Shown here: positions 19,591 through 60,843 of the stretch, in pieces
Position numbering within the stretch: position 1 is the stretch's first letter
Layout of the letters: every line of letters begins with the position of its first letter
Assembly: GCF_002113885.1 (NCBI RefSeq)
Contig: NW_018408761.1
Location: 997,580-1,061,579, forward strand
DNA from: Mizuhopecten yessoensis
Taxonomy: Eukaryota
Length of the DNA stretch: 64,000 nucleotides
Direction of reading: 5' to 3'
Program-made: the position numbers and the translations under genes
Notes under the pieces: model-generated
The model's input: only the letters and a program-made list of their open reading frames with translations
What the model was told of the DNA's origin: nothing
Database searches by the model: none

Positions 19591-19608
19591 AACTACTCTT
19601 TGTTCCAG

Positions 19609-23840: not shown

Positions 23841-24158
23841 GTAGGTTACAAGGATAAGCAAGTTCAAGTAAGGTCATGATAGATTGAAAAGTTTGAAACC
23901 TAATTTTGATCAATTTAGAATGTCAGAACCAATGTCTTTAAATGATAAAAATTTTACATTGTACCTAAAGGTTAACATAAGGGGAAAACATTAAAACTGT
24001 TATCTGTTTTTAGGTGTATATTGGGTATGAAAAGTATTGTGATAAGGCAAACCATATTTAAATCTTTATTTAACTCATCTGTTTTAGCTGAATATAAGGT
24101 ATGAGATCAGGTATTGTGATAACAAACAATAGTATACAGGTGATTACTTAACCAACAG

Positions 24159-24299
24159 GTGTTCCTGTTAGCTGTTGAAAAGTTACCAGAGAAAGCCCTC
24201 ATCAATGTAGTCAGTTTTGGCACATCTTACTCGGAACTCTTTCCTTCACCTCAAAAGATGACAAAACAGACTTTACAGAAAGTTACAGAATTTGTACAG
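24159..24299 (+). CDS. PARP4: PARP4-like exon 20 (VWA)
   Basis: Acceptor TTAACCAACAG|. VFLLAVEKLPEKALINVVSFGTSYSELFPSPQKMTKQTLQKVTEFVQ. Donor CAG|GTAAGA. Confidence 0.85.
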
Positions 24300-25165: not shown

Positions 25166-25340
25166 TTATAGATCTACACCTGGAAAGGTTGTGGAATTTC
25201 TGTTTTCATCTCCAATAATTATGTTCGTTGAACCAGTAGTGGATGATTCAACAGGTAATGTTGTTGGATCCATAGGGTTTGAATCCCGAAGTATTAAACC
25301 AGTTGTTGTTGAATGAGTAGTTGAATCAGTTGTTATACGC
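25166..25340 (-). CDS. Candidate nested gene, exon 3 (Ser/Thr-rich tail)
   Basis: Acceptor TTTAAACTCGACAG|. (R)RITTDSTTHSTTTGLILRDSNPMDPTTLPVESSTTGSTNIIIGDENRNSTTFPGVDL. Stop TAA at 25168-25166. 594+200+175 = 969 nt = 323 codons, so the model is frame-consistent. Confidence 0.35.
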
Positions 25341-25384
25341 CTGTCGAGTTTAAAAGTGAATAAATATTAGATTGGAATAATGCA

Positions 25385-26977
25385 TCCTACCAGGATTGGC
25401 CCTAAGCTACTTCAAGGTCATAGGAGTCAACTATGTCAAAAACTTCTAACGACTTTTTCTAAAAAAACGAGGCCAAAAATTGTACTATTTGGCAAGCAGC
25501 TTCTTGGGAAAGAGCCCAATAAAGTTTGCAAACAAATATTACTTTGATCCACTTTCAAGGTTGCAGGGATCAGACATGCCAAATATTCAAACAACTTCTT
25601 TTGAAAAACAAAAATAACCAAGAGTCATGATATTTGGGTATAGGCTTTCTGGGGTACATTCAGCCAAAGTTTGCTAAATAAAATTACTTTGACTTACTTT
25701 CAAGTTGAAAGGGTTCAAAAGAAGGCATAGAATCATGATATTTGGCCAGTAGCTTTCTGGGACAGAGCCATACAATGTGTGTGGGGGGAAAAAGTGGGCT
25801 TGACCTACTTTGAAGGTCCCCAGAGTCAGATATAAAATAACTAGAGTCATGGTATCTTGCTGGTTGCTTTCTAGGATGGAGCCCATCATCATTTCCATGT
25901 CAAGAGTTGACCTTGACATACTTTCAAGGTCACAGACGTCAAATATGTCAAGAAATTCAAATGACTTCTTTCAAAAGGCCTGGAATCATGACAATTTGAA
26001 TGATCCCAAGAATGTATAGGTTGAAAAAAGAAATGACTGACCTTTGACTATCCAGGTCACAAACATAAAATTGTGCTGAGTCATTTAGGGCAAATAAGGT
26101 GTAGATTAAGTACATTCACAATTTCATATTACTGGTATTGTTGAAATAAACCAATTAAATATTACAGACGTCCACTAATATCTTGCACACCAAATCACTT
26201 TACACATTGGACAAGTGAGGAATACAGGCACTTTTTACCACCTGTTAGATTTAGGTCAATTATTACATCACCTTCATTATTTTCATTCTTGACTACCAAA
26301 AGGCCTAGGGTGATGATATTTGGCCAGTAGCATGCTGGAATAAAGGACTGGCAAGTTGTTCAAATGAATGACCCTGACCAATAGTCAAGGTCACAGGAGT
26401 CAAATTTATTGAAAAAATTCAAACAACTTCTTCTGAATAACCAAGAAGCATAGGGAGGTTATATTTGGCCAATAACATGCTGAGATGAAAGGTTATCAAG
26501 TTGAAGAGAATGAACTTCAACCGTATTCAAGGTCACAGGGTTCAAATTTGTTAAAAACTTCAAACAACTTCTTCTGAATAACCAAATGACATAGGGTAAT
26601 GTTATTTAGCCAGTAATATACTGCAATGCATGGTTATCAAATTTGTTCGAATGAATGACTTTGACCTATTTTCAAGGACACAGGGGTCAAATTTGTTTAT
26701 ATGATGTGTTAAAAGTGAATAAATAACTAGACTAACCATCTTTAGTTCAGATCAATAAAATATGTTCAAATCTTCCAACAAAGATTCACAAAGATACATA
26801 AGGTGTAGAGTAATAAAATGTTTTGAGGAAGACCCAAAAAAGTGTATAGCCTGTTTTAACAGCTAAATGAGTTTCTGATACTCCCTTTGATAAACATGTA
26901 TCGTATCCAAAAGGTTGAAAAATTAAAAAAAATAAAATTTAGGTGAGCTAGCTATCAAGGCCCCTGGGCAGTTTGTT
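25385..26977 (+). mobile_element. Degenerate family A-type element (diverged approximately 120-bp 'TTCAAGGTCACAGG.GTCAAAT' units)
   Basis: Diverged copies of the 20571-21494 unit run throughout. Tail-like TTAGGTGAGCTAGCTATCAAGGCCCCTGGGCAGTTTGTT ends about 26977. The 5' boundary is approximate. Confidence 0.5.
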
Positions 26978-27391
26978 GACTATGTTCTGCATTAAGGTTC
27001 ATGCAACTTTACATATTTATGTGCTTTTATCAGAAGAAAATGTCCCACAATATTTTTAAATCCTTGACTATGACCTTGACCTCTATGAAATTGCTTTGGG
27101 TCTTAAGTGTGGGAAGTGGACATCCCTGTCTAACAGACACATTTCTAGTTGAACCTGAAAAGAAGTTTCAGTCGTTCAATTGATGACAACCACGAATATG
27201 GGATTTACTCTGAAAAAGGCCTGTATTCTTTGTGTAAGATTAGAAAACAATGTTAGTATATAACAAAAATTCAAGTTATCTGACAGACACATGGTTTAAG
27301 CTGATTTAAGGCTAAGGGGCCAAGCAAATTATATCTCTACACTGAAAAACTTATTTAAAAAACAAAAACGCTAAGATGCAATAAAACTGAC

Positions 27392-27591
27392 CTTGAAATA
27401 GTTGATGGAGAACTTGGGTGTACTGGTGGTGTTAAGGGTTGTGTTACAGTACTCATCTGGTACATCCTGTAGTTGTAGTGTACATCTCCTAGTTGGACAC
27501 GGTTGCTGCCAGCCTGGTACACAAACTTAAACACTACCGCTGTGGTGGCAGCGGTGGGATGTGATAGGTCAGCACTGCATGTGGTGCCAAT
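27392..27591 (-). CDS. Candidate nested gene, exon 2
   Basis: Acceptor ATACCACTACAG|. IGTTCSADLSHPTAATTAVVFKFVYQAGSNRVQLGDVHYNYRMYQMSTVTQPLTPPVHPSSPSTIS. Donor CAAG|GTCAGT, phase 2. Confidence 0.4.
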
Positions 27592-27865
27592 CTGTAGTGG
27601 TATCACATCAGTGGAATAGCATGTCGATGTGAGATTTGTCCACGAGATGATGTCTGTTGTTGTTTAAATCCAAACTGTTTGTTTGGCCTCTTGTCAAATT
27701 TTAAAATGGTAACACTAGTTTTTGACTGACTAGTAGTAAGTTTTGACAAATCAGCCAGTTTGAGCAACTCAGTTGTTTCCATTGTTGCAACGTCCTCTTG
27801 ATTGGGATAAAAGTTCATATAAATCCCTGCCTCACTTAGATGGCTTTCCATGATGTACTTCTCAC

Positions 27866-28459
27866 GGTTGAATTTATCTGGACTCGAGAATTGTATAACA
27901 TTCTTTGAGTCAATAACACTAACACAAGAATAGAACCACTTAACATAATTGTTAGTCCAAGGATCTTGGTAAATAGCAGACATTTTGTGTCAGTTTTTCT
28001 CTTGTTTTTTGATAGTTTCGTGTTCTGCAAATCCTTTTTCGAAAATGTGACACTGATTATGGTCAAGACCTCTAACATCACTGCTATGGCCTTAACCATT
28101 TGTAAAATACTGACTGCCACCTTGCAACATCCTGCAATGTAGACATTAAGGAATATCAATGGAACATTTTCCCATACCAAAATCACATTTGCTCCGTCCA
28201 ATAGCCATGAGGGGAGGTGACTCTCATCCTTCACATCCATAATTATAACAATCACCTCTGTTATGTAAGTCATGGTTCCTATAACAGAGAAGGCAAGAAG
28301 TGATGACATCACACTACATGTACTAGGAAATGGTTCAAATACAAGGCCTTGTTCCAGGCCACTGACCTCATAATAAAACAGCCAATCACAAATTAGGTCA
28401 AAGGTCAACGCCAGAGATGAGATGATGAGAATCAAAATTTTGTTTGTGCGGGAATCCAT
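27866..28459 (-). CDS. Candidate nested antisense gene in PARP4 intron 20, exon 1: multi-pass membrane protein
   Basis: ATG at 28459. MDSRTNKILILIISSLALTFDLICDWLFYYEV...ILGLTIMLSGSILVLVLLTQRMLYNSRVQINST. Five hydrophobic 18-23 aa segments. Donor ACC|GTGAGA, phase 0 (the raw ORF runs on to a stop at 27836). Confidence 0.5.
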
Positions 28460-31334
28460 CTCTGTAGGAAATTCTTGATTTGTTTTGTCTCAACTGGTTA
28501 GTAAATCAAGTACGCTAGTGATGTCTGAAGTATATGTTATAAAATGACACCTCTTTTAGAGCCTATCACTTTTGGCCTCAACCCTTTTCCTATAATAACA
28601 AATGATGATAAATAGAAATACTTGGCGAAATAAAATTAGAGGTTATATATTTTGACAAAAATGATGTTACAAAATTTACTTGGTAAAGTTACCATTCTTG
28701 ATGCAAATCTATGAAGAAAATTGTTATCATTAAACATGTTTACCTATCAGCATTTTCCTGTAATTGTGTTTTTCAGCAAGAATGTTGGAATTTGAAAAAA
28801 TTCAAAAATGATGATATTGACTCTTAAATCAAATCTGGAAGACAAACATATTTTTCATTACACATGAATCGCATGTTGCTTATCGCTTACCTTTTGTAAC
28901 TTTAATAACAAATTTACCTGTATGCACATAGTGGTTTTCCTCGTCTTGAATGTTTATAATCAAGCTGTTTATCCTAGAGGACTTTGAGAAGAAAATGAAG
29001 CCCGCAATATCTTTCTACAACCATGGCTACAAATCTGTCTATTACTGAGATGTAGTAGATGGATTCTCAACAGTTATCTATTATATGAAGATGAGACTAA
29101 GACTGGTTAGTCCTAAGTGTATTTATTCTGTGTTGGGTGGCCCATGTTAAAAGTGATTATTACAGACATGTATTGTAAGTTTGTCTTGTCTTCTTTAAAT
29201 CATTATTGATCCATATGCATATATTTTGGTAATATTTTCTTAATTTAAAAATGATTGTTTACCGTATTCAGACTTCATGTTTGAGTTATGTTAATTTGAC
29301 CCTCCTGTACGGAACTGCAACTGTAGTTCTGGTAATATAACACTTCAGTGATTATTTAATTAAATATATATAAAAACAGATATTTAGCTTTTGACCTTGT
29401 TAACATTATCAATTTAAATTATAGGTTGTTTTTATATAATATGCAGCAATTTTTATGATTATGTGTGACAATATCCTTAATTTGGTAAACTCGTGACGAT
29501 ACAGAAATTGGCTTGTTCTCAGGGTTCACTGTTGGTGCTGTATGGTCTTTTTGTGAACATTGTTTACATTTGTATGAATTAAACATACACATCTCTGTAA
29601 AATTGTTTAGAAGTTTAAAAGTCCACCAGTATTTGTCCGTCCTGTTAACATACACATTTTGTGCTTGTCAGTTAATGTTATTTGTGACAGCTTTTCAACT
29701 GGATTTCTAAACAGTGATATAAGATATCTCTGTAGCTGTGGCTAAATCATCGGAGCAATGTAACGCTCTTTTTTCATTAAAACTGTGTTTAGGAAATAAT
29801 TTTTATGAACAAATTGAGGCAGCATAAGAGGGTTTTACGGTAATTCAACGTAAAGTTTGAAAATATTTATTCAATAAAAGAAAGGTTTTTTCTTATCAAA
29901 AAATTGTATAATTTTGATTTGTTAAATATACTTAAGTATTTGATAAAATATTAAATACTACTTCACTGTCTAAACCAGGCGGTTCAAATATAGATTTTTA
30001 TTTTGTCTAAAATAAGAATTTGGTTCCAGCAATGAAAATCTATTATACCGTTAAACAATTAGACTATCTACCATCCAGAACATGCAGGAAATCGGCTATC
30101 ATTGCTTGGTCCTAGCTAGGAGTGTTTGTCCACACTTATAGTTTTTGGTGATTATTTCAGAATCCAGAAGTCCAAAACTTATGAAATTTTATATGGTGAT
30201 TTACTGTTATATGCACATATGCAATGGTAGTTATAAAAGTTCATAAGGTCAAAGTCAATATGCACATGCATGTGCAATGGGAGTTTAAAAAGAGCGTAAG
30301 GTCAGTCACTATTGCTAAAACTTCATTGCCTGTGTGACCTGTCAGTGTTGCATTTTTAATTGTTGGTTATGCTTCATTTATACATTGTAGCACCATATAA
30401 CCTTGAACCCGTAATCCAAGATTGCAACAAGTCAAGGTCAAGGTCACTGATACTAATAATAAAACAGGAGTGATTTACTGTTAAAACTACATTTTATGAC
30501 TTGGTCAGTGTTTGTTATGATTGCAAATGTTACTTGGCAGATATCCTGTACATCTATAATGCCATATTTCCTTAATCCTGAAATCTAAGATGGCCGACAT
30601 CTATTGCTTCTGACTGGCTGAGACATAACTTTTGTTTTGTTAATACAATTTTGTTCATATGTCATGGAAAATGATGCTTATAAGGGACAGTCCATATGGT
30701 GAATATGAACATATTGTCCGATACCCATGAAACAAGTTGGCTGACATAGTTTCTCATTGGCTGGGGTTTCAACTTTGAAGTCATATTACCTAGTCTGTAA
30801 CTTTTTATTACAATGTTCCAAATTCCTAGTGATCACTGCATAAGACTTTTTCTTCGCAATTTTGCATTCTAGATAAACTGTCAGGATGGGGCCATTATTT
30901 GCTGACCTATATCTGAGTTCTATGTAATTGGTTCCTGATTTAAATACCTACTAAATTGTGTTCACATTGCATAAATCGCATTGTATATACTGCATTACCC
31001 CAAAATAATTTTGATTTTTCCTTATACATAATGTAATTGCATTAAAAAAGCCAAACAACACTTTCAAGGGCATAGTTAATGAATATTTATTCAAAAATAA
31101 TTTTGCACATAACACAGCATTAATGATTATGCTGTAACTTAATTCATCATCAAGCATCCATTCAGAATTTAAAATTAAAAATACTGCGACAAACATTGTG
31201 GTATAATTCACACCTGGGAAAATCATTGCAACAGTAAATATCACATGAAAGAAATGGGATGTTTAAATTTTGAATTGATGTGATTATTGAATAACGTCAA
31301 ATATACTGATTATAATGTTATAATGATATTTCAG

Positions 31335-31522
31335 GCTGTGCAGCCACATTTGGGAGGAAGCAATGTTGATTACCCAGTAGAGTCCTTGTTCCTTCTCAGT
31401 CCAGCAGAGGGCAGCAGGAGTGTCTTCCTCATCTCAGATGGTTACCTTAGCAACAGTGATGTGTTGCTGTCAACAATCAGGAAAGGAAATGCTAAAAATA
31501 GAGTCTTCACCATTGGTGTTGG
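31335..31522 (+). CDS. PARP4: PARP4-like exon 21 (VWA)
   Basis: Acceptor TGATATTTCAG|. AVQPHLGGSNVDYPVESLFLLSPAEGSRSVFLISDGYLSNSDVLLSTIRKGNAKNRVFTIGV(G). Donor TGG|GTAAAT, phase 2. Confidence 0.9.
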
Positions 31523-32388
31523 GTAAATATGGTATATGTAATGATTATTTTGTAAATTAAGATTTTATATGAAAAAGATAAGTTAAGTTTGATCGGTGCG
31601 TTTCATTTATGTTGAATTTCTACTAACCAGTTGGTATTATTCATGGAAGATTGAATTTTGCTATTTTCAAGGCCATTCAAAATTATGAAAATTTAACATC
31701 TAGCCAATATTTAATATTGCTGTCAATTATAACTGCTGTGACTATAAACAGGCCCACATAGAGTGTATAGACATGCTTATAATTACTGCTAAAAAAACAG
31801 GTGACCAAACTTCAACCAGCTGACCATGTTGTGGTGTTGTCGATGTCAGTTTGTTTTCAAACCTTTCCCAAGCAAGGTTGTTATTAAACAATTAGTAAAA
31901 ACAAATGTGATTTACACGCTTTTATTGAAAAGTAAATAAACCTCACCTGTAAATTGGACATGTCCATGACTTGAGGGTTGTGCGGTACTAATCTAACTTG
32001 CCTACAGTATTATAAATCAATTTTACCTAGTTTCAGAGAATTAGATGGGATTGCTATCTAAGTCTGTGCTAGTACCTATACCAAAGTAGCCAGTGACACT
32101 GAAGTTTTGACTTGCTGGTGTTTCAAAAATTTTCATCCCTGTGAAATAGTTCCAATCAAGATAGCTGCATAACATGAGCCCTTTAAAATTAGATTTGAAA
32201 TTAAACAACTATACAGTATGTAAATGGATGTGCAAGTGTTTCACAGGATAGAGGCAGGACGTATGATGTTGAGGTGTAGGCTATTGATTATCAATTGGAA
32301 TTGAAGCATGATGGGTTTTTTCAAAATGTATATAAAGGTATTTATGTGTAAAGTAAGTAATATTTTGAACTTTGATGTTTTTATGAAG

Positions 32389-32488
32389 ACAAAACGTGAA
32401 CCACCACCTGATGCGGAGCCTGGCGTCACGAGGAGGCGGTACCTATTACCATTACAACTATAAGACACGCTCCGTTTGGGAGGCCAGG
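32389..32488 (+). CDS. PARP4: PARP4-like exon 22 (VWA end)
   Basis: Acceptor GTTTTTATGAAG|. (G)QNVNHHLMRSLASRGGGTYYHYNYKTRSVWEAR (compare vertebrate STANRHVLRILSQCGAGVFEYFNAKSKHSWRKQ). Donor AGG|GTGAGT. Confidence 0.85.
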
Positions 32489-33507
32489 GTGAGTGATCCA
32501 GTCTCATCACCTTGTTGTATGAGGCTTTGTTATTGTTGGTTGTAAGCAAGGGAGAAACTCTCAGCATCATCCTGAGAAAATAATCTGACCCAAGCATCTG
32601 CACTAACAAATCTCATATGAAGGATTGTAATTTTAACACAGTACTGGGTCTCTTCTAAAGTGGTGGACGTTTTTTTGTTTCAAACATTACTATACTGTAG
32701 ACCTTGGTTTGAACTCTCATACTAGTAGAATGACTCAGGCATTTATATTCACAAAGTTCACTACAAAGCAAACAGTCATTTAAGTCAGAATGAACAAAAA
32801 ATATAACACTGAGTTCCTTGTTAAATTTCTTTTTGCAAATAATGTTAACGAGCTTTCCTTTAGCATAGGAAAGGGGGTGAGTCTAAATTACAGGTAACAA
32901 ACTTAGTGGTTAAACTATATCATAGTGATCTCAATGTCTTTACTCTAATATACAATTTCGCAACTTTCGTGTTGAGCGATAAACTTCATGTTTTTCCTGC
33001 CATATAATTTCACTGAACCTATTGGAACAGAAGATAATGCCCAAATTCTTCAAGAATTTCTTGAAGTCTCTCAAAAAACAGGGACATAATTCAAATCAGA
33101 GCTTAGTCAATGATTAAAGCTTAATAGGGTAGAAACATGCAGACTAGATCACAAATTAAAAACAAATTTTGCTACTGAAATCATCACATTACATATTGGA
33201 ATACTGGTAGAAGTGGTTCAGTATGATTTACAGAAACAATTATACATATAGATTTGAAATATAGCATTACAAAGAGACAATCTACAGGAAATACGTGTTT
33301 AAAGCTGTCAATCAATATCCATTCCCTTAGTTAACTCATTCACCCCTGATTTCATAATGAATTATTCCAAACTTTGAATTGGAAGAGTTCAAATGTGTCT
33401 TCAGGGGTAATTGAGTTAAATATGATCTCTGAAAATTTCATCTTTAAGAGATATTTAAGAGGTAGTCTTGTACTTCTATGTCACTTTTATGTTTTAATAC
33501 TCTCCAG

Positions 33508-33678
33508 ATGAACACTCAAGTTCAGAAGGCATGCCGTCCAGGTATTTCTGGTGTTAAAGTGGAGTGGCAGCAAAACATGGACACGACCAACAGACCTCTT
33601 CAGGCCCCTAATCACATCCCAAGTTTGTTTTCTGGGTCACGACAGGTCGTGTATGGCTTTGTACCTAACTGTACACAG
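33508..33678 (+). CDS. PARP4: PARP4-like exon 23
   Basis: Acceptor ATACTCTCCAG|. MNTQVQKACRPGISGVKVEWQQNMDTTNRPLQAPNHIPSLFSGSRQVVYGFVPNCTQ (compare vertebrate ..VSVKWQQ...LQAPAQVPSLF...LLVYGFIPHCTQ). Donor CAG|GTGAGA. Confidence 0.9.
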
Positions 33679-35760
33679 GTGAGAATTTTTATTACACTGA
33701 TGTGCTGGTAAGCAGGGGTTCAACTAGTTATATCTTTGTATGGCTTTGTACCTAACTGCACACAGGTGAGAATTTTTATTACACTGATGTGCTGGTAAGC
33801 AGGGGTTCAACTACTCCCCTCGGTAGGGACAAGTTATATCTTTGTATGGCTTTGTACCTAGCTGTACACAGGTGAGACTTTGTATTACACTGATGTACTG
33901 GTAAGCAGGGGTTCAACTACTCACCTCGTTAGGGACAAGTTATATCTTATCTTTGTATGGCTTTGTACCTAACTGTACACAGGCGAGAATTTTTATTACG
34001 AGGATGTGCTGGTAAGCAGGGGTTCAACTACTCGCCTCGTTAGGGACAAGTTATATCTTTGTATGGCTTTGTACCTGAATTTAGGCAGGGGAGGCTTTGT
34101 ATTACACTGATGTGCTGGTAAGCAGGGGCTCAACTACTCACCTCGGTAGGGACAAGTTATATCTTCATATGGCTTTGTACCTAACTGTACACAGGTGAGA
34201 ATTTTTATTACGAGGATGTGCTGGTAAGCAGGGTTTCAACTACTCACCTCGGTAGGGACAAGTTATATCTATGTATGGCTTTGTACCTAACTGTACACAG
34301 GTGAGACTTTTTATTACGAGGATGTGCTGGTAAGCAGGGGTTCAACTACTCCCCTCGGTAGGGACAAGTTATATCTTTGTATGGCTTTGTACCTGAATTT
34401 AGGCAGGGGAGGCTTTGTATTACACTGATGTGCTGGTAAGCAGGGGTTCAACTACTTATTTCTGGTGTTAAAGTGGAGTGGCAGCAAAACATGGACACGA
34501 CCAACAGACCTCTTCAGGCCCCAAATCACATCCCAAGTTTGTTTTCTGGGTCACGACAGGTCGTGTATGGCTTTGTACCTAACTGTACACAAGTGAGAAT
34601 TTTTATTACGAGGATGTGCTGGTAAGCAGGGTTTCAACTACTCACCTCGGTAGGGACAAGTTATATCTTCATATGGCTTTGTACCTAACTGTACACAGGT
34701 GAGAATTTTTATTACACTGATGTGCTGGTAAGCAGGGGTTCAACTACTCCCCTCGGTAGGGACAAGTTATATCTTTGTATGGCTTTGTGCCTAACTGTAC
34801 ACAGGTGAGACTTTGTATTACACTAATGTGCTGGTAAGCAGGGGTTCAACTACTCACATCGGTAGGGACAAGTTATATCACGCTTTATATCTAGATAAAA
34901 TAAAACGAGTTCATTACAAAGATGACCGGACAAAAAATGATGTATTCAATATCAATATCAATATTGATATATCTTTGTATGGCTTTGTACCTAACTGTAC
35001 ACAGGTAAGACTTTGTATTACACTGATGTACTGGTAAGCAGGGGTTCAACTACTTACCTCGTTAGGGACAAGTTATATCTTTGTATGGCTTTGTACCTAA
35101 CTGTGCACAGGTGAGACTTTGTATTACACTGATGTGCTGGTAAGCAGGGATTCAACTAGTTATATCTTTGTATGGCTTTGTACCTAACTGTACACTGGTG
35201 AGACTTTGTATTACGAGGATGTGCTGGTAAGCCGGGGTTCAACTACTCACCTCGGTAGGGACAAGTTATATCTATGTATGGCTTTGTACCTAACTGTACA
35301 CAGGTGACACTTTGTATTACGAGGATGTGCTGGTAAGCAGGGGTTCAACTACTCCCCTCGGTAGGGACAAGTTATATCTTTGTATGGCTTTGTACCTAAC
35401 TGCACACAGGTGAGAATTTTTATTACACTGATGTGCTGGTAAGCAGGGGTTCAACTAGTTATATCTTTGTATGGCTTTGTACCTAACTGCACACAGGTGA
35501 GAATTTTTATTACACTGATGTGCTGGTAAGCAGGGGTTCAACTAGTTATATCTTTGTATGGCTTTGTACCTAACTGCACACAGGTGAGAATTTTTATTAC
35601 ACTGATGTGCTGGTAAGCAGGGGTTCAACTAGTTATATCTTTGTATGGCTTTGTACCTAACTGTGCACAGGTGAGACTTTGTATTACACTGATGTGCTGG
35701 TAAGCAGGGGTTCAACTACTCACATCGGTAGGGACAAGTTATATCACGCTTTATATCTAG
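33543..35760 (+). repeat. Minisatellite (about 86-110 bp unit, about 19 copies) seeded from the last codons plus 5' splice site of exon 23; includes a 136-nt second copy of the exon 3' part at 34457-34592
   Basis: Each unit starts with TATGGCTTTGTACCTAACTGTACACAG|GTGAGA (YGFVPNCTQ plus donor). It continues with ATTTTTATTACACTGATGTGCTGGTAAGCAGGGGTTCAACTAC(TCACCTCGGTAGGGACAA)GTTATATCTTTG. Confidence 0.9.
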
Positions 35761-35920
35761 ATAAAATAAAACGAGTTCATTACAAAGCTGACAGGACCAA
35801 AAATGATGTATTCAATATCAATATCAATATTGATTATATTAGGAGACTGTAAGTGCAGAATTAAGTTCTTTGCAAAGGGGTTTTTAATGTGTGGTGGAAC
35901 TGGAATGGGTTGATTGTCGG

Positions 35921-36010
35921 TGGCCAGGTAGCTCAAATAGTAGTGTCTGTCTAGTGTTGTGAGGGTTCCAGGTTTGAACCCCAGTCTGGCCATTGCATTT
36001 CTGTTTTGCA
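35921..36010 (+). mobile_element. tRNA-derived SINE head (degenerate A and B boxes)
   Basis: GGCCAGGTAGCTCAAATAGTAG...GGTTCCAGGTTTGAACCCCAGTCTGGCCATTGCATTTC. A related, better preserved copy lies at 62690-62790. Confidence 0.45.
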
Positions 36011-36078
36011 ACAAATGTATTGTTGTGTCTGGTTGTAATTTGGTTAGTCTGTTTAATGAAGAAGGTAAAAAGGTTATA

Positions 36079-37118
36079 TTAGCTCACCTATGAGCTTATG
36101 GTATGGCGTGTTGTCACTCGTCTGTCATCCGCCCGTCATTGAGTCTGTCGTTCATCGTCCCATCAACGTTTTCTTTGAATGGCTTGTTCTCAAGAACTGG
36201 AGGACCTAGGGCCATGATATTTGTTCAGTAGGTACCTGGGACAGAGTGCTGTAATATTTTCTCAAATAAATGACCTTAACTTACTTTCTATGTCACAGGG
36301 GTTAAATATATAAAAAAACCTTTAAACAACTTCTTCTGAATAACCAGGAGGCCCAGAGTAATAATACTAGGTCAGTATGTACCTGGCATGAAGTGCTATA
36401 AAGTGTCCTCAAACAAATGACCTTGACTTACTTTCAAGGTCACAGGGGTCAAATGTGTTTAAAAACCTTTAAAACATCTTCTTCTGAATTTCTGAATAAC
36501 CAGTAGGCTAAGAGTCATGATATTTGGTTTGGCCAGTAGGTTCATGGGACAGAGTGCTATAAGTTTTCCTCCAATAAATAACCTTGACCTACTTTCAAGG
36601 TCATGGGTTAAATATGTAAAAAATAAATTAAACATCTTCTTCTAAATAACCAGGAAGCCCAAAGTAATAATACTTGGCCAGTAGGTACCTGGCATGAAGT
36701 GCTATAAAGTTTCCTCAAATAAATGATCTTGACATACTTTCAATGTCACAGGGTTCAAAATTGTAAAAATCTTTAAACAACTTCTTCTGAATAGCTAAGA
36801 GGCTTAGAGCAATGATATTTGGCTAGTAGGTACCTGGGACAGAATGCTATCACGTTTCCTCATATAAATTACCTAGACCTCCTTTACAGTCACAGGGTTC
36901 AAATATGTGAATACTTCTTCTGCAATACCAGGATGCCCTCATTGATGATGTTTGACAAGTAGCATGCTGGGATAGAGTAGTATAAAGCTTCATTTAGTCT
37001 GGAGCATTCTTAAGCCAAGGAAACTCAATATATTAAAATATTTACAAAAGTACTTTTATTGAGAATATTTTCCCATGATTGCTCAAATAACCAGGTGAGT
37101 GATAAGAGGGCCTCTTGT
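36079..37118 (+). mobile_element. Composite non-autonomous element, family A, with approximately 120-140-bp internal units
   Basis: Head TTAGCTCACCTATGAGCTTATGGTATGGCGTG. Tail AACCAGGTGAGTGATAAGAGGGCCTCTTGTA. The internal units are related to those at 20571-21494. Confidence 0.65.
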
Positions 37119-37340
37119 AAAATGATTAAAGAGTTTCTCCATTTCAGAATGTTGTCAGTCTGTTAGAGATATATATAGATGGTAATATTTGCCTCGGACA
37201 AATAACAAACTTACAATGTCGGATCATACCAAGGTAAATATCTCTTTGTAACAATAACAAACTTACAATGTCGGATCATAACAAGGTAAATATCTCTTTG
37301 TAACAATAACAAATTACAGCAACCATCATTTATTTTACAG

Positions 37341-37421
37341 GCCTATTTGAAGGCAACTGTGGACAACATGGAGGTTTCTACGATGGTAGCAACAACAGAA
37401 CTCAACATTACACAAGGAGAG
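37341..37421 (+). CDS. PARP4: PARP4-like exon 24
   Basis: Acceptor TTTATTTTACAG|. AYLKATVDNMEVSTMVATTELNITQGE (compare vertebrate ..EFRTMVSTTELQKTTGT). Donor GAG|GTAATC. Confidence 0.85.
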
Positions 37422-37803
37422 GTAATCAACATCAATTAGAAATGGAAAATGTATTCTATTATAATATCTCATTGCTTGTGAACAGAACTCCTTTTTCAAC
37501 ATCTCGTTCATTCAGATAAATTAAAGTCTATCTACCAGAAGCATAACATTTACATCAGACTTCCAAAGGTGAATTCAAAGCATTTCTCTTGGTTGTCATT
37601 TATATTTACTTGATATTTTGTACTTTACACCACAAGCTTTCTAGTTAATTAAATCAGATTATCAGGGCCCTAGCTGGTGATTTTTATGTGAGTAAATAAA
37701 TTCTACAACCTGTGTGAAAGTTTGATGGAATAGCAGCATTGAAAACAATGTTACCTGTTTTACATGTAGTTCTCTCCCCTGATTGGATATATTTTGTCCC
37801 CAG

Positions 37804-37884
37804 ATGCTGCATCAGCTGACGGCTCGTGCGGTGATCCGTGACTACGAGGATGGCATCCTTTGTGAGGACAAGATACAACAGCGG
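37804..37884 (+). CDS. PARP4: PARP4-like exon 25
   Basis: Acceptor TTTTGTCCCCAG|. MLHQLTARAVIRDYEDGILCEDKIQQR (compare vertebrate MIHKLAARALIRDYEDGILHE). Donor CGG|GTAGGT. Confidence 0.9.
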
Positions 37885-38640
37885 GTAGGTACTCGTGCAA
37901 ACATAATCTCTTATTTTGCAATTATTCAAATGCTATTGGTACAAATTCTCAAGAAACACAAAAAAAAAAATCATAACATTAAATTACTTTTGAATAATTG
38001 AAATAATACAGAGTTGGCTGTTGGCTGTCATTGACCGTGACAAAAGGTGGATTGTTGTTCTGATGGTACTTACCAAACATACAAAACTTGTTTGCAAAGC
38101 TGTCCTTTCTGGTTTGGTCCTCTATACATCAACTAGCCAAAGATATTGCAATGATTCCCATGAAGGTTTTGTTGTAATGATTGAATCATTGCAATTAACT
38201 TAGTCATGATGAATGGATACAACCAATATTTCAGATCTAGTATTATCAAAGTTTTGTTAGTGTATAACCTGTTTCTCCATGATCAAAGAATTTTAACGTG
38301 TTTGGTGCCAACTCATGCTGGATATCTTATAGACTCTATACTGCAGATAACTCTGACCAAGATCACTGTTTCCAAGTGCTTCCATTGTGCTAAACCCTTG
38401 GTTAACGGTTACTATCCCATTGTTCTATAGATTAACCTGAAGAGAAATTCCATCTAGCCGAATCAGTAACAAAGTTTCTAAATAATTCACCACTTTGACA
38501 TAGCCCTCCATGGAAGGACCTGACCCCTAAGACTTCAGTGACAACCATAATTATGCCTTTAAGAGTAAGGCTAAAGAGATGATAAAACATAGTATTGTGA
38601 TCACATTGTAAGCACCAGTGTATACGTAACTGAGATCCTT

Positions 38641-39365
38641 ATTTCTCTTACCCTGGACAGGTGTATACACACTTTTCCTGTTGTGAGTTTATAATAGAAT
38701 CTTTCACCCCAAAGGGTGAGATGAGGGAATCTCAACCCGAGGGGGAAGATTCTTAAGTTGACAGCAAAGCCTCAGGTTCGGCAACTTAGGAGAATCTCAA
38801 CCATTCTTTCCCTGAGGGTTGAGATTCTCCTATCTCACCCCCAGGGGGATGAGAGATTATTTTTCTCTTACCCTGTTCTTGCATTGTGTATAATATACAT
38901 ATTGTAATGTTACAGGCTAAATTCAGGGTTGACGTGACGTTGATGGATTGTTTATGTGACGTCATACCATTGTTATGAATAGGGGAATCCCCCCGTTTCA
39001 ACCCTAGGGTGTGACATTGATATATCACACCGGTAAAAGTGTGGATACACCTGTCCAGGGTAAGAGAAATCCTTGTCTTTCCTAGGGTTGAGACGGGGGG
39101 ATTCCCCTATTCATAACAACTGTATGACGTTACGTCAACATTACATCAGCATCATGTCAACAACGTATTATATGATACACAATGAGTGAACAGGGTATTA
39201 AGAGAAAAATAATTATTGACCCGCTTGTGGTTGAGATTGGGGAAATATTCTTAAGTTGCCTTACACTCGGCAAAACCTCATGTTTGTCAACTTAAGAATC
39301 GTCCCCATCATGTTGAGATTCCGCTATCTCACCCGCAAGGGGTGAGAGATTCTATTATTCCAAGT
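38641..39365. mobile_element. Long imperfect palindrome / foldback element in intron 25
   Basis: TTTCTCTTACCCTGGACAGGTGTATACACACTTTT (38641-38675) versus AAAAGTGTGGATACACCTGTCCAGGGTAAGAGAAA (39035-39069). Also about 38690-39010 is mirrored as a reverse complement at about 39078-39365. For example, TTGTTATGAATAGGGGAATCCCCCCGTTTCAACCCTAGG matches CCTAGGGTTGAGACGGGGGGATTCCCCTATTCATAACAA. Confidence 0.65.
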
Positions 39366-39537
39366 TCACCCGCTAGGTCTCTAATCCAGATTTACAAAAT
39401 TCAAATCCATTCTAAACTTTCTCCTAATTATCAGAGTCAACAAGTGATTAGATGCTTCTCTACTTTGACAATCAGAAAGCCAGTACTAGCTGAATAAGTT
39501 CTCAGAATTGATTTCAGTATGAACTGTGCTTCTTCAG

Positions 39538-39639
39538 GTGCTGAAACAGGAGAGAAAGAACACCATTATACAGCTGAGCACGGAGTACTCCATTGTGACC
39601 CCCTACACCAGCTTTGTGGCCATTGAGGAAAGAGATCAG
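39538..39639 (+). CDS. PARP4: PARP4-like exon 26
   Basis: Acceptor GTGCTTCTTCAG|. VLKQERKNTIIQLSTEYSIVTPYTSFVAIEERDQ (compare vertebrate ..LSKENSLITQFTSFVAVEKRDE). Donor CAG|GTATTT. Confidence 0.9.
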
Positions 39640-40474
39640 GTATTTACAGTGTTAATAACTTGTATCTCTTGTACAGATCTGGGAAATATTAAGGGATTCC
39701 TTTACAACCTTTGGTTGGTTGGTTCACATGTTTATCAGTCAGTGTGGGGGAGGGGGGTTAAGTGGCCTTTACAAACCCTCCTAGTCATGTGTGTCTATGC
39801 ATGATCCCCACGGCACTCCTATCCCTAAGCAATCCTGTGAATGCTTCTTATATATATATTTATATACCAGATGCAAATTAAAGTCAACCTGTCTTTGTCA
39901 GCACCTCTGTTAATAAGCAGACACTTCTCTAATCCTGCCACTGTTAAGGAATATAGTACTGTATAACATGAAATGTTCGATGTGTATAAACATTCGAGGT
40001 TTTCGTGGTTTCTATTGAATCACGAAAATAAATTCAAACAAATTTGAATGATATAAGTGTCTACTGTTTGTTATTATAGGATATCCACAAAAGTTTGTAC
40101 CATGAAACGATCTAAATGGCTTCAATCCACTAAGGAAAATAGCCACGAACATTTTGTGTTATACAGTATTATAGTTATAGTCAAACAATTAATTAGAACT
40201 TGTATAATAGCCACTTGTATTCAGCAGCCACTTTTGACGATCCCTAAATCAGGTTTTACCATACAATACCTTGTCGATCTTGAATAACTAGGCCCACTGA
40301 GGACGACTCATCTTACATATGAAACAACATCTGTTGATATCTGAAATAACACACAAAATTGTCCAACTGTAATGACTTTTTTATGCTGCTTGACATTGTT
40401 TTATCATATTATTGAACTTTTTATCAAACAGCACATGAAAACATAAAATTGTTTGTGTTTCTTACCATTGTCAG

Positions 40475-40582
40475 GATGAGCAGATAACAGATGGACCATC
40501 TATTGATGACCTGGTTGCTGAGGAATCTGTAGACATTTTGGATTATGTAGGCTGGCAGAACCCTGATTTCTTTGATGAAAAG
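40475..40582 (+). CDS. PARP4: PARP4-like exon 27
   Basis: Acceptor CTTACCATTGTCAG|. DEQITDGPSIDDLVAEESVDILDYVGWQNPDFFDEK (compare vertebrate ..ELIAKEDVDFLPYMSWQGEPQ). Donor AAG|GTAAGT. Confidence 0.75.
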
Positions 40583-42549: not shown

Positions 42550-42726
42550 TCCCAATCGAGATACACACCCTGACTGGTAGGACTATCCCCGTGAGTGTGT
42601 CCGAGGGCGACACCGTGTCTGACTTGAAGAATAAGATCCATCAGATAGATGGACTTGACCCAGAGCAGCAGAGATTGATTGTTGGTGGGAAACCGCTGAA
42701 GGATCTCGCTGTTCTCTCCGATCTTG
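42550..42726 (+). CDS. PARP4: PARP4-like exon 30 (ubiquitin-like domain, first three quarters)
   Basis: Acceptor TTATTCCCATTGCAG|. (F)PIEIHTLTGRTIPVSVSEGDTVSDLKNKIHQIDGLDPEQQRLIVGGKPLKDLAVLSDL, which aligns with ubiquitin [58 protein letters not shown]. Donor CTTG|GTAATT, phase 1. Confidence 0.85.
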
Positions 42727-46593: not shown

Positions 46594-46694
46594 ATCTGGA
46601 GTATAATGCTGTCTTCCTGTTACCAAGGCTGCGAGGGGGACTTAGTTTTGGTCTCAAGGAAGATTTGAAAACAAAGCGTATTCTCGCGGAAAAC
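46594..46694 (+). CDS. PARP4: PARP4-like exon 31 (ubiquitin-like domain C-terminus with RLRGG)
   Basis: Acceptor TTTTCTATATTCTTCAG|. (D)LEYNAVFLLPRLRGGLSFGLKEDLKTKRILAEN. RLRGG is at 46626-46640. Donor AAC|GTATGA, phase 0. Read-through of the donor gives V then TGA. Confidence 0.8.
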
Positions 46695-51232: not shown

Positions 51233-51459
51233 GACATGAATGAGTATGATCAGATATATGGTAAGAAGGTGCATACGGAAAAGGACAAAAGCTGTACTGA
51301 TGATGGAAAAAACCCGGTGAAGATGTCCTCATTGTTTTCTCCTTTTAGGCAATCCTTACGAATGATGGCTCCAAGGAAACAGTTAGCAACCAAAGCTGCC
51401 AGAAAATCTGCACCTGCAAACTTTGATGAAAATGAGGAGGAGCAGAATGAGGATGACAG

Positions 51460-51497
<38 letters not shown>

Positions 51498-54313
51498 TTG
51501 AAAAGATGGGCAACTTTAGCTGCATGGCACTTCCAGATGACAACGTGGTTGATGATGCTACGAACAAGAAACAGGAAGTGTCAGATGTAGGAAGAATACC
51601 AGACTCTCCACTCTCAGCAACACAGTTTGGCCCCTTGTCTCCAAAATGTTCAGATTCATTTGGTACAAACTTTGAAAAATTTGAAATCTCTCAGTATTTA
51701 GATGAAGACATGGAGATTGATTTAGATACTGAAGACCCGGCATTCCTCATTCTCACTTCTGAAATATCTGACATATTTTCACCTTCAATGGCAGGCCATT
51801 CTCAGGACACTCCAGCCTATATATCAACCTCCCCATCTTACAAACCAACTTCCCCATCCTATTCGCCCACTTCCCCATCTTACAAACCAACTTCCCCATC
51901 CTATTCGCCCACCTCCCCATCTTACAAACCAACTTCCCCATCCTATTCGCCCACCTCCCCATCTTACAAACCAACTTCTCTATCCTATTCGCCCACTTCC
52001 CCATCTTACAAACCAACTTCTCCATCCTATTCACCAAATAGAAGAGCACGAAGAGCCAAATCAACATTTGAGGATTTCCAACATGAATCAACATCAAACA
52101 ATAAAGATTTTGTGGTTTCAGGTTCAAGACAAGCAAAGTCAAGCAGCACATCTAGTGAACATGGTTTGTGTGGAGCTCCAGTGCAAGCAGAACCAGGCAG
52201 TAAACCAAGTCAGAGCTTCAATTTTAATGCTTCGCTACAAACAGCATCAAGCAATGAACCAACACAAAGTTTGGGATTGGGGGCTCCAAACCTAGCAGAA
52301 CTAGGCGGTAAACCAAGTCAGGGGTTCAATTTTAGTGCTCCTCTAGTAACAGCATCAAGAAATATATCAACACAAAGTTTGGGATTGGGGGCTCCAAACC
52401 TAGCAGAACCAAACACAATGCCAAGTCAAGGGTTTTCCTTTGGAGCTCGAATGCAAACAACTCAAAGCGCTTCACCAGCCGAAGGTTTCAGTTTTTCTCA
52501 GAATCAAACATTGCAGAGCATTACCAGTAAAGGAAGCCATTGTTTTGGATTTGGGACTTCAAAACCAGCCGGAGCAAGCAGAACGACAAGTCAAGGGTTT
52601 TCCTTTGGCGCTCAAATGCAGTCCCAACGATGCAATATACCAACCCAAGATTTCTATTTTGGAGCTTCAAATTCAGCAGGTTTTGGAGATGACGGTGACA
52701 GACGTGGTGGTTATGGAGGTGTCAGTGTTAGACCTGGTGGTTATGGAGATGACAGTGACAGACGTGGTGGTTATGGAGGTGTCAGTGTTAGACGTGGTGG
52801 TTATGGAGGTGTCAGTGAGGGACTTGGTGGTTATGGAGGTGTCAGTGTTAGACGTGGTAGTTATGGAGGTGACAGTGTTAGATGTGGTGGTTATGGAGGT
52901 GTCAGTGAGGAATGTGGTGGTTATGGAGGTGTCAGTGAGGGACTTGGTAGTTATGGAGGTGTCAGTGAGGGACTTGGTAGTTATGGAGATGACGGTGTCG
53001 GACGTGGTGGTTATGGAGATGACAGTGTCGGACGTGGTGGTTATGGAGGTGACAGTGTCGGAGGTGATGGTTATGGAGGTGTCAGTGAGGGATTTGGTGG
53101 TTATGGAGGTGACAGTGAGGGATGTGGTGGTTATGGAGGTGTCAGTGTTAGATGTGGTGGTTATGGAGGTGTCAGTGAGGGACGTGGTGGTTATGGAGGT
53201 GACAGTGAGGGACGTGGTGGTCCTAGACTTGCTGGTTCTAAAGATGGACATGTTTCTTACATAGAAACAGCACCAACATTTACATATTTGAAGGATCTTG
53301 ACTTGAATTTAGCAAAACATGATCCAAAAACTAGGATATTGAAGGAAAATGACAGAAGACCTTCCAGTGTAACAGAGAAGGATCTGCCTTCACAGCCTTT
53401 CAGACATGTACAGGATAAAATGTTCCCACCAGACTTTGATGAATCCTTATTACCTAAACAAAAGAGAAAAATTCCTCCTGTTGGAAGAGGAGGTTCTGGA
53501 TTCACTGCAAGGAATGACCAGGGTCCTGCTGAAACAACCAAAGAACAAGGTCGAAGGTCATTAAAGTCAGTCAGAGGCGCAATGCATGGTGCAAGATCAA
53601 GAGACAGAAATAGGGAACAATCTCGTGAGCTTATTGTGCTGGATAAGAGTAAAAAACTAAGTTTGAGTCATGACAGAAGGCGGAGGAGTTTGAGTAGAAG
53701 TTTGAGTCGAGACAGAAGACAGAGGAGTTTGAGTAGAAGTTTGAGTCGAGACAGAAGGCGGAGGAGTTTGAGTAGAAGTTTGAGTCGAGACAGAAGGCGG
53801 AGGAGTTTGAGTAGAAGTTTGAGTCGAGGAAGGGGGAGAAGAGACTTGGAAAGATGTTACAGTAGAGATAGAGCAAGAAAGGAAAATAAAAAAATGCACA
53901 GATCAAGTGGAAATAATGATACAAACAGTAGGAATAAAAATAGGGACAAAGCAGGAAGCAAAATAGACAGAGATCCTGCAAGAGAAAGTAAGAAACAGAT
54001 AAAGCATAAAAATGAAAAGAAGGAGCAAACAAAGGCTGATGAACAGGTTGTCAAAACATTTGGGAAAAAAGGGAAGAAAAGGGAACAGACAAGGGATGAT
54101 GAAGAGATTGTCAAAACTGGAGGGAAGAACCTGTCAGGAAAGTTGGAATATGATGATCATGAGAAAATGGACTTTACAGTGGACATGGCACCAACTTTGA
54201 AAGTCTGGGATGTAACATCAGAGACAGGCAAGGACATTGTGAAATTCATAAAGTATATTTCTGATTCAATCTTCTTTTATATACAAAAGATCTGTAATTT
54301 TCTACAAATTCAA
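51233..54313 (+). CDS. PARP4: PARP4-like exon 32: 3081-nt low-complexity exon (H3-tail copy, poly-Asp, CTD-like heptads, FG-like, GGYGG, RS and Lys-rich modules)
   Basis: Acceptor TTCTGTATTTCAG| with phase 0 from exon 31. Single open frame of 1027 codons (the track ORF 51236-54337 is the same frame). Donor CAA|GTGAGC after ..KICNFLQIQ (compare vertebrate PARP4 ..SCFLQIK..). An alternative weaker donor is ATCT|GTAATT after 54293. Confidence 0.8.
51368..51418 (+). other. Histone H3 tail copy: [17 protein letters not shown] (identical to H3 residues 15-31)
   Basis: Direct translation of GCT CCA AGG AAA CAG TTA GCA ACC AAA GCT GCC AGA AAA TCT GCA CCT GCA in the exon 32 frame. Confidence 0.9.
51461..51496 (+). 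repeat. (GAT)12 coding microsatellite, poly-Asp tract
   Basis: Twelve uninterrupted GAT codons within [18 protein letters not shown]. Confidence 0.95.
51824..52039 (+). repeat. RNA polymerase II CTD-like heptad array (42-bp two-heptad unit, about 10 heptads)
   Basis: [72 protein letters not shown]. Confidence 0.9.
52214..52687 (+). other. FG-nucleoporin-like segment
   Basis: SFNF, GFNFS, GFSFG, GFSFS, CFGFG, GFSFG, FYFG and AGFG motifs, separated by uncharged S/T/Q/N/A/G/P-rich spacers. Includes a 34-aa duplicated unit ([20 protein letters not shown]). Confidence 0.7.
52700..53221 (+). repeat. 30-bp coding tandem repeat, about 17 copies of the decapeptide (R/L/C)GGYGG(V/D)S(V/E)(R/G)
   Basis: [50 protein letters not shown]...[14 protein letters not shown]. 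Other frames on both strands stay open across it because of the repeat. Confidence 0.9.
53657..53833 (+). repeat. 42-bp coding tandem repeat, 4 copies of [14 protein letters not shown] (RS-domain-like)
   Basis: [62 protein letters not shown]. Confidence 0.9.
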
Positions 54314-54344
54314 GTGAGCTTAAGTGAACTTTCTTGATTAGCTT

Positions 54345-58913: not shown

Positions 58914-59013
58914 GGACAATATTGGGAACTGACTCCAGAGCTGTGTCAAACCCTCGGTGTTTTCTACATCAAGGTCACCAACCAGCTGAAGCTACATGGC
59001 CTGTACTCCTTAG
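58914..59013 (+). CDS. PARP4: PARP4-like exon 35 (C-terminal vault-interaction-like region)
   Basis: Acceptor TTCTTGTGTTTCACAG|. GQYWELTPELCQTLGVFYIKVTNQLKLHGLYSL(G) (compare vertebrate DGFWKLTPELGLILNLNTNGLHSFLKQKGIQSLG). Donor TTAG|GTATGT, phase 1. Confidence 0.85.
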
Positions 59014-60475: not shown

Positions 60476-60843
60476 GAAGCCATGCTGCATCCTTAGGAGA
60501 AAACATGGTAGCAACATATCTTGTGGTCCTCAAGATAATACAGATCATTTACCAGCAGATGAACAGAAAACCACTGAAATTGGACCTGGCCGGATTTGCG
60601 TCTTTGGACTTGATGAACTGGACATTGAATTGTAACAATACCCTGTCCATCAAGTTAGATACTACGCGGTCAACAGGATGCTCAGCGGTGTTGTATCTCC
60701 ACAATGAAATATCAGGTGTTCACAAATGGTTGACCGAGAAGCGTGGTGAACATGAACGACTCTGTAGGCAGTTAGAACTAGGACATTCCTTACAAACTTT
60801 CACTTGGAACCTTTTCTGTGCTCTCAACGAAAAGCCAGTCTGA
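60476..60843 (+). CDS. PARP4: PARP4-like exon 36 (last coding exon)
   Basis: Acceptor AATCTGTGTTGTAG|. (G)SHAASLGENMVATYLVVLKIIQIIYQQMNRKPLKLDL...SAVLYLHNEISGVHKWLTEKRGEHERLCRQLELGHSLQTFTWNLFCALNEKPV. Stop TGA at 60841-60843. Compare vertebrate ..LLDLIATMLVLQFIRTRLEKEG...AFEAIKQASEWVRRTEGQYPSICPRLELGNDW. Confidence 0.85.

Follow-up and report, generated by a model that had tools for sequence, protein, structure and literature searches.

What does a run of glycine- and tyrosine-rich decapeptides do inside the gene of an intracellular enzyme? The question is raised by a stretch of 64,000 nucleotides from the scallop Mizuhopecten yessoensis (NCBI RefSeq assembly GCF_002113885.1, contig NW_018408761.1, positions 997,580 to 1,061,579 of the forward strand), here called the window, with all coordinates counted from its first letter. 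On its plus strand, at 52679..53221, lies a 30-bp coding repeat that will be referred to as the GGYGG array. Judged by homology, the surrounding gene is PARP4, or vault PARP, of this pectinid scallop. What PARP4 and the vault do has long been an open question. By itself the array is unremarkable, one more low-complexity repeat rich in Gly and Tyr that arose by tandem duplication; its interest lies in its location. It shares a single exon with at least four other tandem-built modules, a setting that was overlooked in a preliminary description of the locus made from the bare sequence, and that exon sits where vertebrate PARP4 carries a disordered linker. We hold, with moderate confidence, that the coding GGYGG array serves, within a probably disordered PARP4 linker exon, as a flexible Tyr/Arg module for multivalent interactions.

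The GGYGG array and its reading frame

Tandem Repeats Finder (TRF) delimits the array at 52679-53221 (+), with a period of 30, 18.1 copies, 87% matches, 0% indels, and a score of 694; its consensus is GGTTATGGAGGTGTCAGTGAGGGACGTGGT. Read in the frame of the open reading frame (ORF) at 51236..54337, each unit becomes GYGG(V/D)S(V/E)(R/G)(R/L/C/G/F)G. The in-frame unit table resolves 17 Tyr-bearing decapeptides spanning 52709-53218, with a degenerate leading unit ahead of them at 52679-52708. The preliminary description had counted 17 tandem GGYGG decapeptides in a 30-bp coding repeat, which is right for the Tyr-bearing units. It had placed them at 52700-53221, a span that captures a real array but begins some 20 bp inside its first unit, the true start being 52679. 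Its unit motif, (R/L/C/G)GGYGG(V/D)S(V/E)(R/G/C/L), likewise describes the core and the spacer well, but passes over three units with SYG, three with GD in place of the GG following Tyr, and the occurrence of F, P, E, or D at the last spacer position. With up to three mismatches allowed, the consensus is matched 10 times within the window, every time inside the array, against an expectation of 0 by chance (100 dinucleotide-preserving shuffles); elsewhere in the 64 kb no further copy was detected at this threshold.

Two other frames stay open across the array, one at 52440-53264 (+) and the other at 52673-53251 (−), and both stop at or just past its borders. The GGYGG frame, by comparison, remains open for another 1.4 kb upstream and 1.1 kb downstream, making 3.1 kb overall. 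Because it alone extends far beyond the array, it is the frame that codes; its two companions are artefacts of the repeat, as had already been supposed.

Variation among the units is unevenly distributed. Eleven of the 30 unit sites vary across the 17 units, and the six that do so at high frequency all fall at unit positions 14-26, that is, in the spacer, while the GGYGG codons are nearly invariant. Only one of the 10 third-codon positions is variable (hypergeometric P=0.037), and pairwise comparison of the units yields 448 non-synonymous against 15 synonymous codon differences. Three or four kinds of unit can be told apart (VSVR, VSEG, DDSx/GDSV, and GDSEG), interspersed along the array; two pairs of units are identical. 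Such interspersion, together with the identical pairs, suggests that units were duplicated or converted several times. The array, which the preliminary description had taken to be probably young and length-polymorphic, is not the youngest of its exon, since its unit identity, 87%, is below the 95-96% found in neighbouring coding arrays.

The encoded segment is Gly/Tyr-rich and of low complexity, as had been claimed. Glycine makes up 43% of it, followed by S (10.5%), V (9.9%), Y (9.4%), D and R (8.3% each), and E (5%); there are four Cys, and about half of the units carry an Arg. Comparison with RNA-binding proteins of the FET family is instructive. The array shares with these proteins repeated [G/S]Y[G/S] motifs within Gly-rich sequence (14 GYG and 3 SYG), but not the basic or neutral, Arg-rich RGG tract: it contains 7 RGG, and its 15 Arg face 24 Asp and Glu, for a net charge of −9. 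The nearest known motif is the C-terminal repeat GGYGGDR of TAF15, ...GGYGGDRGGYGGDRS... (PMC9957100). Both repeats place Tyr regularly within Gly runs, carry Arg and Asp in the spacer, and are present in similar number. The array departs from TAF15 and the other FET proteins in its 10-residue period, its V/D-S-V/E-R/G-x spacer, its acidic balance, and the small number of its RGG motifs. It also departs from FET proteins in having no sequence homology to them and no RRM, zinc finger, or PY nuclear localization signal (PY-NLS) context. The resemblance to TAF15 is one of possible working rather than of family membership.

The same figures bear on the view, taken in the preliminary description, that the array is RGG-flavoured and FUS/hnRNP-like. 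The likeness is real as composition, the seven RGG included, but does not extend to homology. No FET or hnRNP match to the array was found among 1.84 billion representative proteins or among PDB sequences, and a Pfam scan of the exon and of the scanned neighbouring ORFs gave no RRM or zinc finger. One may still ask whether the array acts as a FUS/hnRNP-type RGG/GY domain that binds RNA or poly(ADP-ribose) and recruits or retains the product of the enzyme. The GYG, SYG, and RGG motifs, the PARP nature of the gene, and the similar TAF15 repeat would favour such a role, whereas the excess of acidic residues over Arg, the absence of FET/hnRNP homology and of the domains just named, and the annotation of PARP4 in database records as a mono-ADP-ribosyltransferase make it quite improbable.

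Searches for relatives returned repeat proteins and little else. A HMMER search with the product of 52040-53650 against the 1.84 billion representative proteins produced 34 weak matches (best E=1.3e-15), all aligned to the array only. They were rejected as homologues, being unrelated repeat proteins that share a 10-residue period. Against PDB sequences the array gave nothing significant, DotG/IcmE appearing at E=0.18 only, and the acidic region and the C-terminal part gave nothing significant either. The non-repetitive segment at 53219-53650 (~144 residues) found no homologue in a word-indexed search of 5.8 billion proteins, and a look-up of the exact ORF product in public assemblies found no record of it, hence no second locus or orthologue. 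The array is orphan sequence, as are its flanks, a status in keeping with how variable the PARP4 linker is known to be.

A shared period of 10 residues also suggests a folded repeat, either a right-handed beta-helix of the pentapeptide kind or some other solenoid. In its favour, the best library and PDB matches, DotG/IcmE among them, do have a 10-residue period of the AGYSxSxLKx type. These matches are weak, however, and have nothing but the GY and the period in common with the array. The two pentads of a unit, GGYGG and (V/D)S(V/E)(R/G)x, do not follow A(D/N)LXX with a hydrophobic residue at the centre of every pentad; Glu stands at the pentad centre in about half of the units, as Glu or Arg does at would-be core positions, and Gly amounts to 43%. 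AlphaFold returned no secondary structure and a predicted local distance difference test (pLDDT) of 39, though this is a weak test, as a control expected to fold, the MINT-like domain of the same gene, scored likewise low at 35.6 in a single-sequence run. A solenoid is very improbable.

The place of the exon within PARP4

The exon that carries the array is large and stands apart in composition. It occupies 51233..54238 (+), 3006 nt or 1002 codons, as defined by its ORF, its splice sites, and its guanine-plus-cytosine (GC) content, which is 44% against 34-38% in the flanks. Its acceptor reads tttcag|GAC, and two phase-0 donors are available, at 54238 (ATT|gtgaaa) and at 54313 (CAA|gtgagc). The ORF at 51236..54337, with 1033 codons, is the longest of the window, the next longest encoding 459 aa.

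Upstream of this exon, and on the same strand, ORFs match the PARP catalytic and VIT domains of Pfam. A query built from these exons retrieved 148 PARP4-type homologues at E<=1e-10, proteins that carry BRCT, PARP catalytic, VIT, and vWA domains, the closest being a partial PARP4-like protein of Pecten maximus. When 120 PARP4 homologues were used as tblastn queries on the window, they marked 28 colinear exon clusters at 4741-40558, again best matched by the Pecten maximus PARP4-like protein, at 70-90% identity. Along one strand, and in a single gene, the domains BRCT, PARP catalytic, VIT, and vWA follow one another in this order. The conserved PARP4 body, comprising the exons of these four domains and the segment after vWA, extends over 4741..40582 (+) by tblastn and Pfam. 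That the gene is a PARP is supported by the PARP catalytic and VIT exons upstream, with PARP4 homologues across 4.7-40.6 kb.

The likeness to structural Gly-Tyr proteins, raised in the preliminary description, is not supported as an interpretation, the array being located in an internal exon of an intracellular enzyme gene. An extracellular Gly/Tyr protein of the shell-matrix or byssus type would account for the composition and for nothing more. The in-phase neighbours of the exon are ubiquitin-like exons on one side and PARP4 C-terminal exons on the other, and neither a signal peptide nor a separate gene structure is evident, so that this explanation is close to excluded.

From the end of the conserved body onward, eight exons can be joined: 40475-40582, 41236-41382, 42000-42087, 42550-42726, 46594-46694, 51233-54238, 58914-59013, and 60497-60840. 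They have canonical AG/GT sites, polypyrimidine tracts, and compatible phases, and together form one frame of 1357 codons with no stop. Within ~1 kb past the large ORF there is no AATAAA or ATTAAA; poly(A) signals occur only past the terminal stop, at 61704 and 62292. We infer from this gene structure that the large exon is part of the PARP4 mRNA.

Landmarks on both sides define what the exon corresponds to. The last conserved PARP4 exon ahead of the linker, at 40475..40582 (+), encodes VAEESVDILDYVGW and was identified by tblastn to PARP4 proteins and by a local hidden Markov model (HMM; E=1.1e-4). The fish PARP4 motif '...AEEDVDFLPY.SW' aligns to human PARP4 (PDB 11jf_P, 1724 aa) at ~1200-1215. 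On the other side, the C-terminal domain patterns 'GYWELT...RLEFG...QLLG' and 'GFWKLTPELG...RLELG...QLLG' align to human PARP4 1583-1716. In the scallop, a candidate first exon of a MINT-like C-terminal domain, encoding GQYWELTPELCQ..., lies at 58914..59013 (+), with splice sites and a weak tblastn match to fish PARP4 (E=0.65). The probable terminal coding exon follows at 60497..60843 (+), where tblastn gives E=0.05, the product contains ...CRQLELG..., and the stop codon TGA occupies 60841-60843. Once spliced (58914-59013 plus 60497-60840), the scallop C-terminus is colinear with human PARP4 1583-1716 at a Smith-Waterman score of 76. Shuffled sequences average 28.3 (standard deviation 4.8; z=9.9), and 0 of 2000 reach 76. 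It follows from the two flanking landmarks, the post-vWA motif on one side and the MINT-like exons on the other, that the large scallop exon, lying between 40582 and 58914, occupies the exact position of human exon 30 as far as homology can place it.

Human exon 30 is the largest exon of PARP4, encoding a disordered region of ~360 residues whose length and sequence differ from one vertebrate to another (Daugherty et al., 2014, PMC4038475). It is the only region of PARP4 found to be under positive selection, which in vertebrates is recurrent, and it is presumed to face viruses (PMC4038475). Through its MINT domain, residues 1562-1724, human PARP4 is anchored to the inside of the vault wall (PMC12280208). 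The scallop linker resembles its vertebrate equivalent (human ~1215-1583) in several respects. It belongs to the same gene family and lies at the same position, between the 'EDVDxLxY' segment and MINT; it is a single very large exon, the largest of its gene; and it is of low complexity, probably disordered, and devoid of sequence conservation across lineages. It differs in length, ~1000 residues against ~360, and in being made almost wholly of tandem arrays, among them copies or imitations of the histone H3 tail, the RNA polymerase II C-terminal domain (CTD), phenylalanine-glycine (FG) repeats, GY/RGG sequence, and Arg/Ser (RS) sequence. It differs further in having an in-frame ubiquitin-like domain ahead of it. 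Neither these modules nor the ubiquitin-like domain have a counterpart described for vertebrates in PMC4038475 or PMC12280208.

This ubiquitin-like domain is encoded by two exons, the first at 42550..42726 (+), phase 1 at both ends, and the second at 46594..46694 (+), which ends in ...PRLRGG followed by LSFGLKEDLKTKRILAEN and whose phase-0 donor joins the large exon. The spliced product scores 57.5 bits against Pfam PF00240 (cut-off 25.4). Its best match among PDB sequences is ubiquitin itself, to which it aligns over residues 4-76, RLRGG included, and from PRLRGG it runs in frame into the large exon. Such a layout recalls a ubiquitin-fusion precursor, by which analogy cleavage or conjugation at the Gly-Gly is conceivable.

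On this arrangement rests a different partition of the locus, in which the low-complexity exon makes a separate protein, either from a nested gene that starts at ATG 42003 or 51236 or by a cut after RLRGG, the way in which ubiquitin-fusion proteins are processed; both routes would yield a free protein of ~1150 residues that comprises the low-complexity region and the MINT-like domain. An ATG does directly follow the acceptors at 42000 and 51233, and a domain closest to ubiquitin whose RLRGG leads into in-frame sequence is what the Ub-L40 and Ub-S27a fusions among the matches look like. Against this, all junctions from 40475 on are phase-compatible and have good acceptor tracts, no poly(A) signal follows the large ORF, and vertebrate PARP4 keeps its large disordered exon within the same polypeptide (PMC4038475); the cleavage, for its part, is pure inference. 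A separate protein is unlikely.

A linker assembled from tandem modules

The GGYGG array does not stand alone in its exon. The first recognizable module, at 51368..51418 (+), is a copy of histone H3 residues 15-31, identical at 17 of 17 positions and encoded by AT-rich codons; it covers K18, K23, K27, and S28. By phmmer it matches 120 H3 chains or peptides among PDB sequences at E<=1, the best at E=7.7e-05. Of the parts searched against PDB sequences, only this segment and the ubiquitin-like domain found a significant match. It may be compared with histone mimics, whether viral (the 'ARKS/ARSK' of NS1 and ORF8) or endogenous (G9a, NOP16), in which H3-tail sequence with ARKS around K27/S28 likewise occurs in a disordered region of a non-histone protein. 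Known mimics extend over ~4-6 residues, and the scallop segment, at 17, is far longer. It differs from them further in belonging to a host PARP, not a viral protein; the comparison concerns this neighbouring module and not the GGYGG array.

A poly-Asp tract, (GAT)14 at 51460..51501 (+) (TRF period 3, 14 copies), follows inside an acidic segment of net charge −28. Then come nine CTD-like heptads at 51825..52032 (+), alternating between YKPTSPS and YSPTSPS. At the DNA level these have a TRF period of 42 with 4.9 copies, 96% matches, and 0 indels. They score 31 bits against Pfam PF05001 (cut-off 20.3), though not in RPB1, and constitute the sole domain that Pfam recognizes in the large exon. A homology search with the whole 1033-aa ORF was flooded by RPB1 CTD matches and supports only the CTD-like nature of 51825-52032. 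Next is an FG/FxFG nucleoporin-like region at 52186..52690 (+), recognized by TRF and by its motifs (GFNF, GFSFG, CFGFG, FYFG). It begins with a 108-bp unit present 2.1 times at 52186-52411 (88% matches, 0 indels) and has no sequence homologue among PDB sequences. The GGYGG array comes after it, succeeded by a non-repetitive stretch of ~145 residues and by an SR-protein-like, 13-residue Arg/Ser repeat of 4.4 copies at 53659..53828 (+) (TRF period 39, 95% matches, 0 indels; R 41%, S 32%), for which a weak match of the RS type, to snRNP27K (E=0.79), was all that PDB sequences gave. The exon ends in a Lys/Glu-rich tail. A transposon or viral ORF was considered as the identity of the large exon and rejected, no matching Pfam domain being present.

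All four coding arrays of the exon, with periods of 42, 108, 30, and 39, have 0% indels and a period divisible by three, unlike most intronic minisatellites of the window, which have indels and periods that are not divisible by three. This contrast is direct evidence of a maintained open frame. The 1002 codons stay open in a window whose GC content is mostly 32-41%, with higher values of 43-45% at 46-50 kb and 52-54 kb.

These observations meet the rival that has the most to recommend it, namely that the array is a neutral minisatellite which expanded in a permissive linker and acts as a spacer only. Minisatellites abound in the window (34 TRF rows with a score of at least 300), some directly beside the exon; the vertebrate linker varies freely in length and sequence (PMC4038475); and the array has no homologue, nor do its unit differences bear the signature of purifying selection. 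Drift alone, though, would have had to keep the frame over 18 units and three more arrays without an indel, where intronic arrays have acquired them, and to leave the GGYGG core near-invariant while the spacer varied. It would also be unlikely to produce, within one exon, a 17/17 match to the H3 tail alongside heptads scoring above the Pfam cut-off, and the homologous vertebrate linker is positively selected, not neutral (PMC4038475). Neutral expansion is a genuine possibility, but a minority one.

Two further observations concern the exon and its surroundings. At 52001-54000 the coding strand is skewed toward G over C (+0.32) and toward A over T (+0.14), far above the remainder of the window, since the arrays favour Gly (GGN), Arg (AGA), and Ser (AGT) codons. 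Non-coding minisatellites adjoin the exon at 50535-51050 (63 bp, 8 copies) and at 54346-54976 (58 and 122 bp, 10 and 5 copies); unlike the coding arrays, they contain 4-6% indels.

Possible working and wider meaning

How might an interaction module of this kind have arisen and operate? The scallop linker would have grown by in-frame amplification of short coding units, its product becoming a chain of modules: H3-tail copy, acidic tract, CTD-like heptads, FG repeats, GGYGG array, RS repeats, and Lys/Glu-rich tail. Within the array, the Tyr that recurs every ten residues would serve as a sticker, joined by Arg in those units that have one, with Gly/Ser spacers and acidic residues in between. By analogy with the GGYGGDR repeats of TAF15, such a sticker-spacer layout could present a flexible, multivalent surface for weak interactions. 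If its function is conserved, the MINT-like domain would tether the array inside the vault, beside the catalytic and VIT/vWA domains, where the array may help PARP4 to capture partner macromolecules, be they substrates, cargo, or pathogen factors.

Several points weigh against this reading. The differences among units suggest the opposite of purifying selection on the spacer; at the same time, the mutation events in the array are too few to prove diversifying selection, for which they are only suggestive. Its net acidic charge speaks against a classical RGG box that binds RNA or poly(ADP-ribose). In a window so rich in minisatellites, the expansion of the arrays could simply have been tolerated, and they need serve no particular purpose. 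The AlphaFold score is weak as evidence of disorder, which for the array is predicted mainly from composition. As to gene structure, the splice-site phases of the eight exons were picked by eye, and the 3' boundary of the large exon is ambiguous between 54238 and 54313. The proposed C-terminal homology to MINT is weak at the sequence level: phmmer found nothing at E<=1 for the scallop C-terminus among PDB sequences, and a small, poorly aligned HMM of fish PARP4 C-termini scored it at E ~3.

A bolder possibility extends the interaction role to the linker as a whole. As an 'integrated decoy', the linker would gather imitations of host low-complexity regions that are common targets of pathogens (H3 tail, Pol II CTD, FG repeats, FET GY/RGG sequence, RS sequence) and hold them inside the vault beside an ADP-ribosyltransferase, so as to capture, mark, or sequester viral or parasite factors that bind or modify the originals. 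The GGYGG array would then be a FET/TAF15-like bait, and the ubiquitin-like RLRGG junction could add a step of processing or conjugation. The proposal is decidedly unlikely as it stands, yet it has precedents, histone mimicry for the H3 module and MX2 condensates for the FG bait. A preprint describes cytoplasmic MX2 condensates in which FG-nucleoporins collect, so that viral capsids meet a decoy of the nuclear pore (bioRxiv 10.1101/2023.06.22.545931); MX2 thereby offers a precedent for an antiviral factor with host-type low-complexity repeats as bait. As portrayed there, MX2 recruits separate FG proteins, whereas scallop PARP4 would itself encode the FG-like and other low-complexity modules. 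If true, the decoy proposal would supply a concrete mechanism for the unexplained positive selection of the vertebrate PARP4 linker.

Part of what is reported here is already known, namely a large, disordered, hypervariable PARP4 exon and, as a kind of sequence, Gly/Tyr low-complexity repeats. No description was found in the papers searched of a PARP4 linker in which tandem modules imitating several host low-complexity regions are combined with a ubiquitin-like domain, and literature searches on PARP4 with low-complexity sequence or with bivalves found nothing relevant. The sole evolutionary clue to the function of PARP4 has been its disordered linker exon, recurrently under positive selection in vertebrates and presumed to touch pathogen factors (PMC4038475). 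In the scallop, the linker can be read as recognizable modules with a fused ubiquitin-like domain, so that what was a nameless disordered stretch becomes a series of ligands open to testing. It raises the questions of which partner binds each module, whether the kinases, methyltransferases, and transport receptors of the originals modify or engage their copies, and whether the whole is packaged in the vault.

Three minor features of the window lie outside the linker. At 33493-35718 (+), within the conserved PARP4 body, a minisatellite with units of 87 and 106 bp repeats ~20 times the 3' end of a PARP4 exon together with its splice donor (VYGFVPNCTQ|gtgaga), and the body of that exon is duplicated at 33493-33777 and 34440-34673; the repeated donors of this region provide many potential decoy donors. 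A 207-aa ORF at 27836-28459 (−), within a PARP4 intron, encodes a hydrophobic product that resembles a multi-pass membrane protein but has no Pfam match; it could be either a gene nested in the intron or an ORF that arose by chance. Upstream of PARP4, a 459-aa ORF at 1227-2606 (−) with no Pfam match encodes a Glu/Lys-rich, coiled-coil-like product and probably represents one exon of an adjacent gene.

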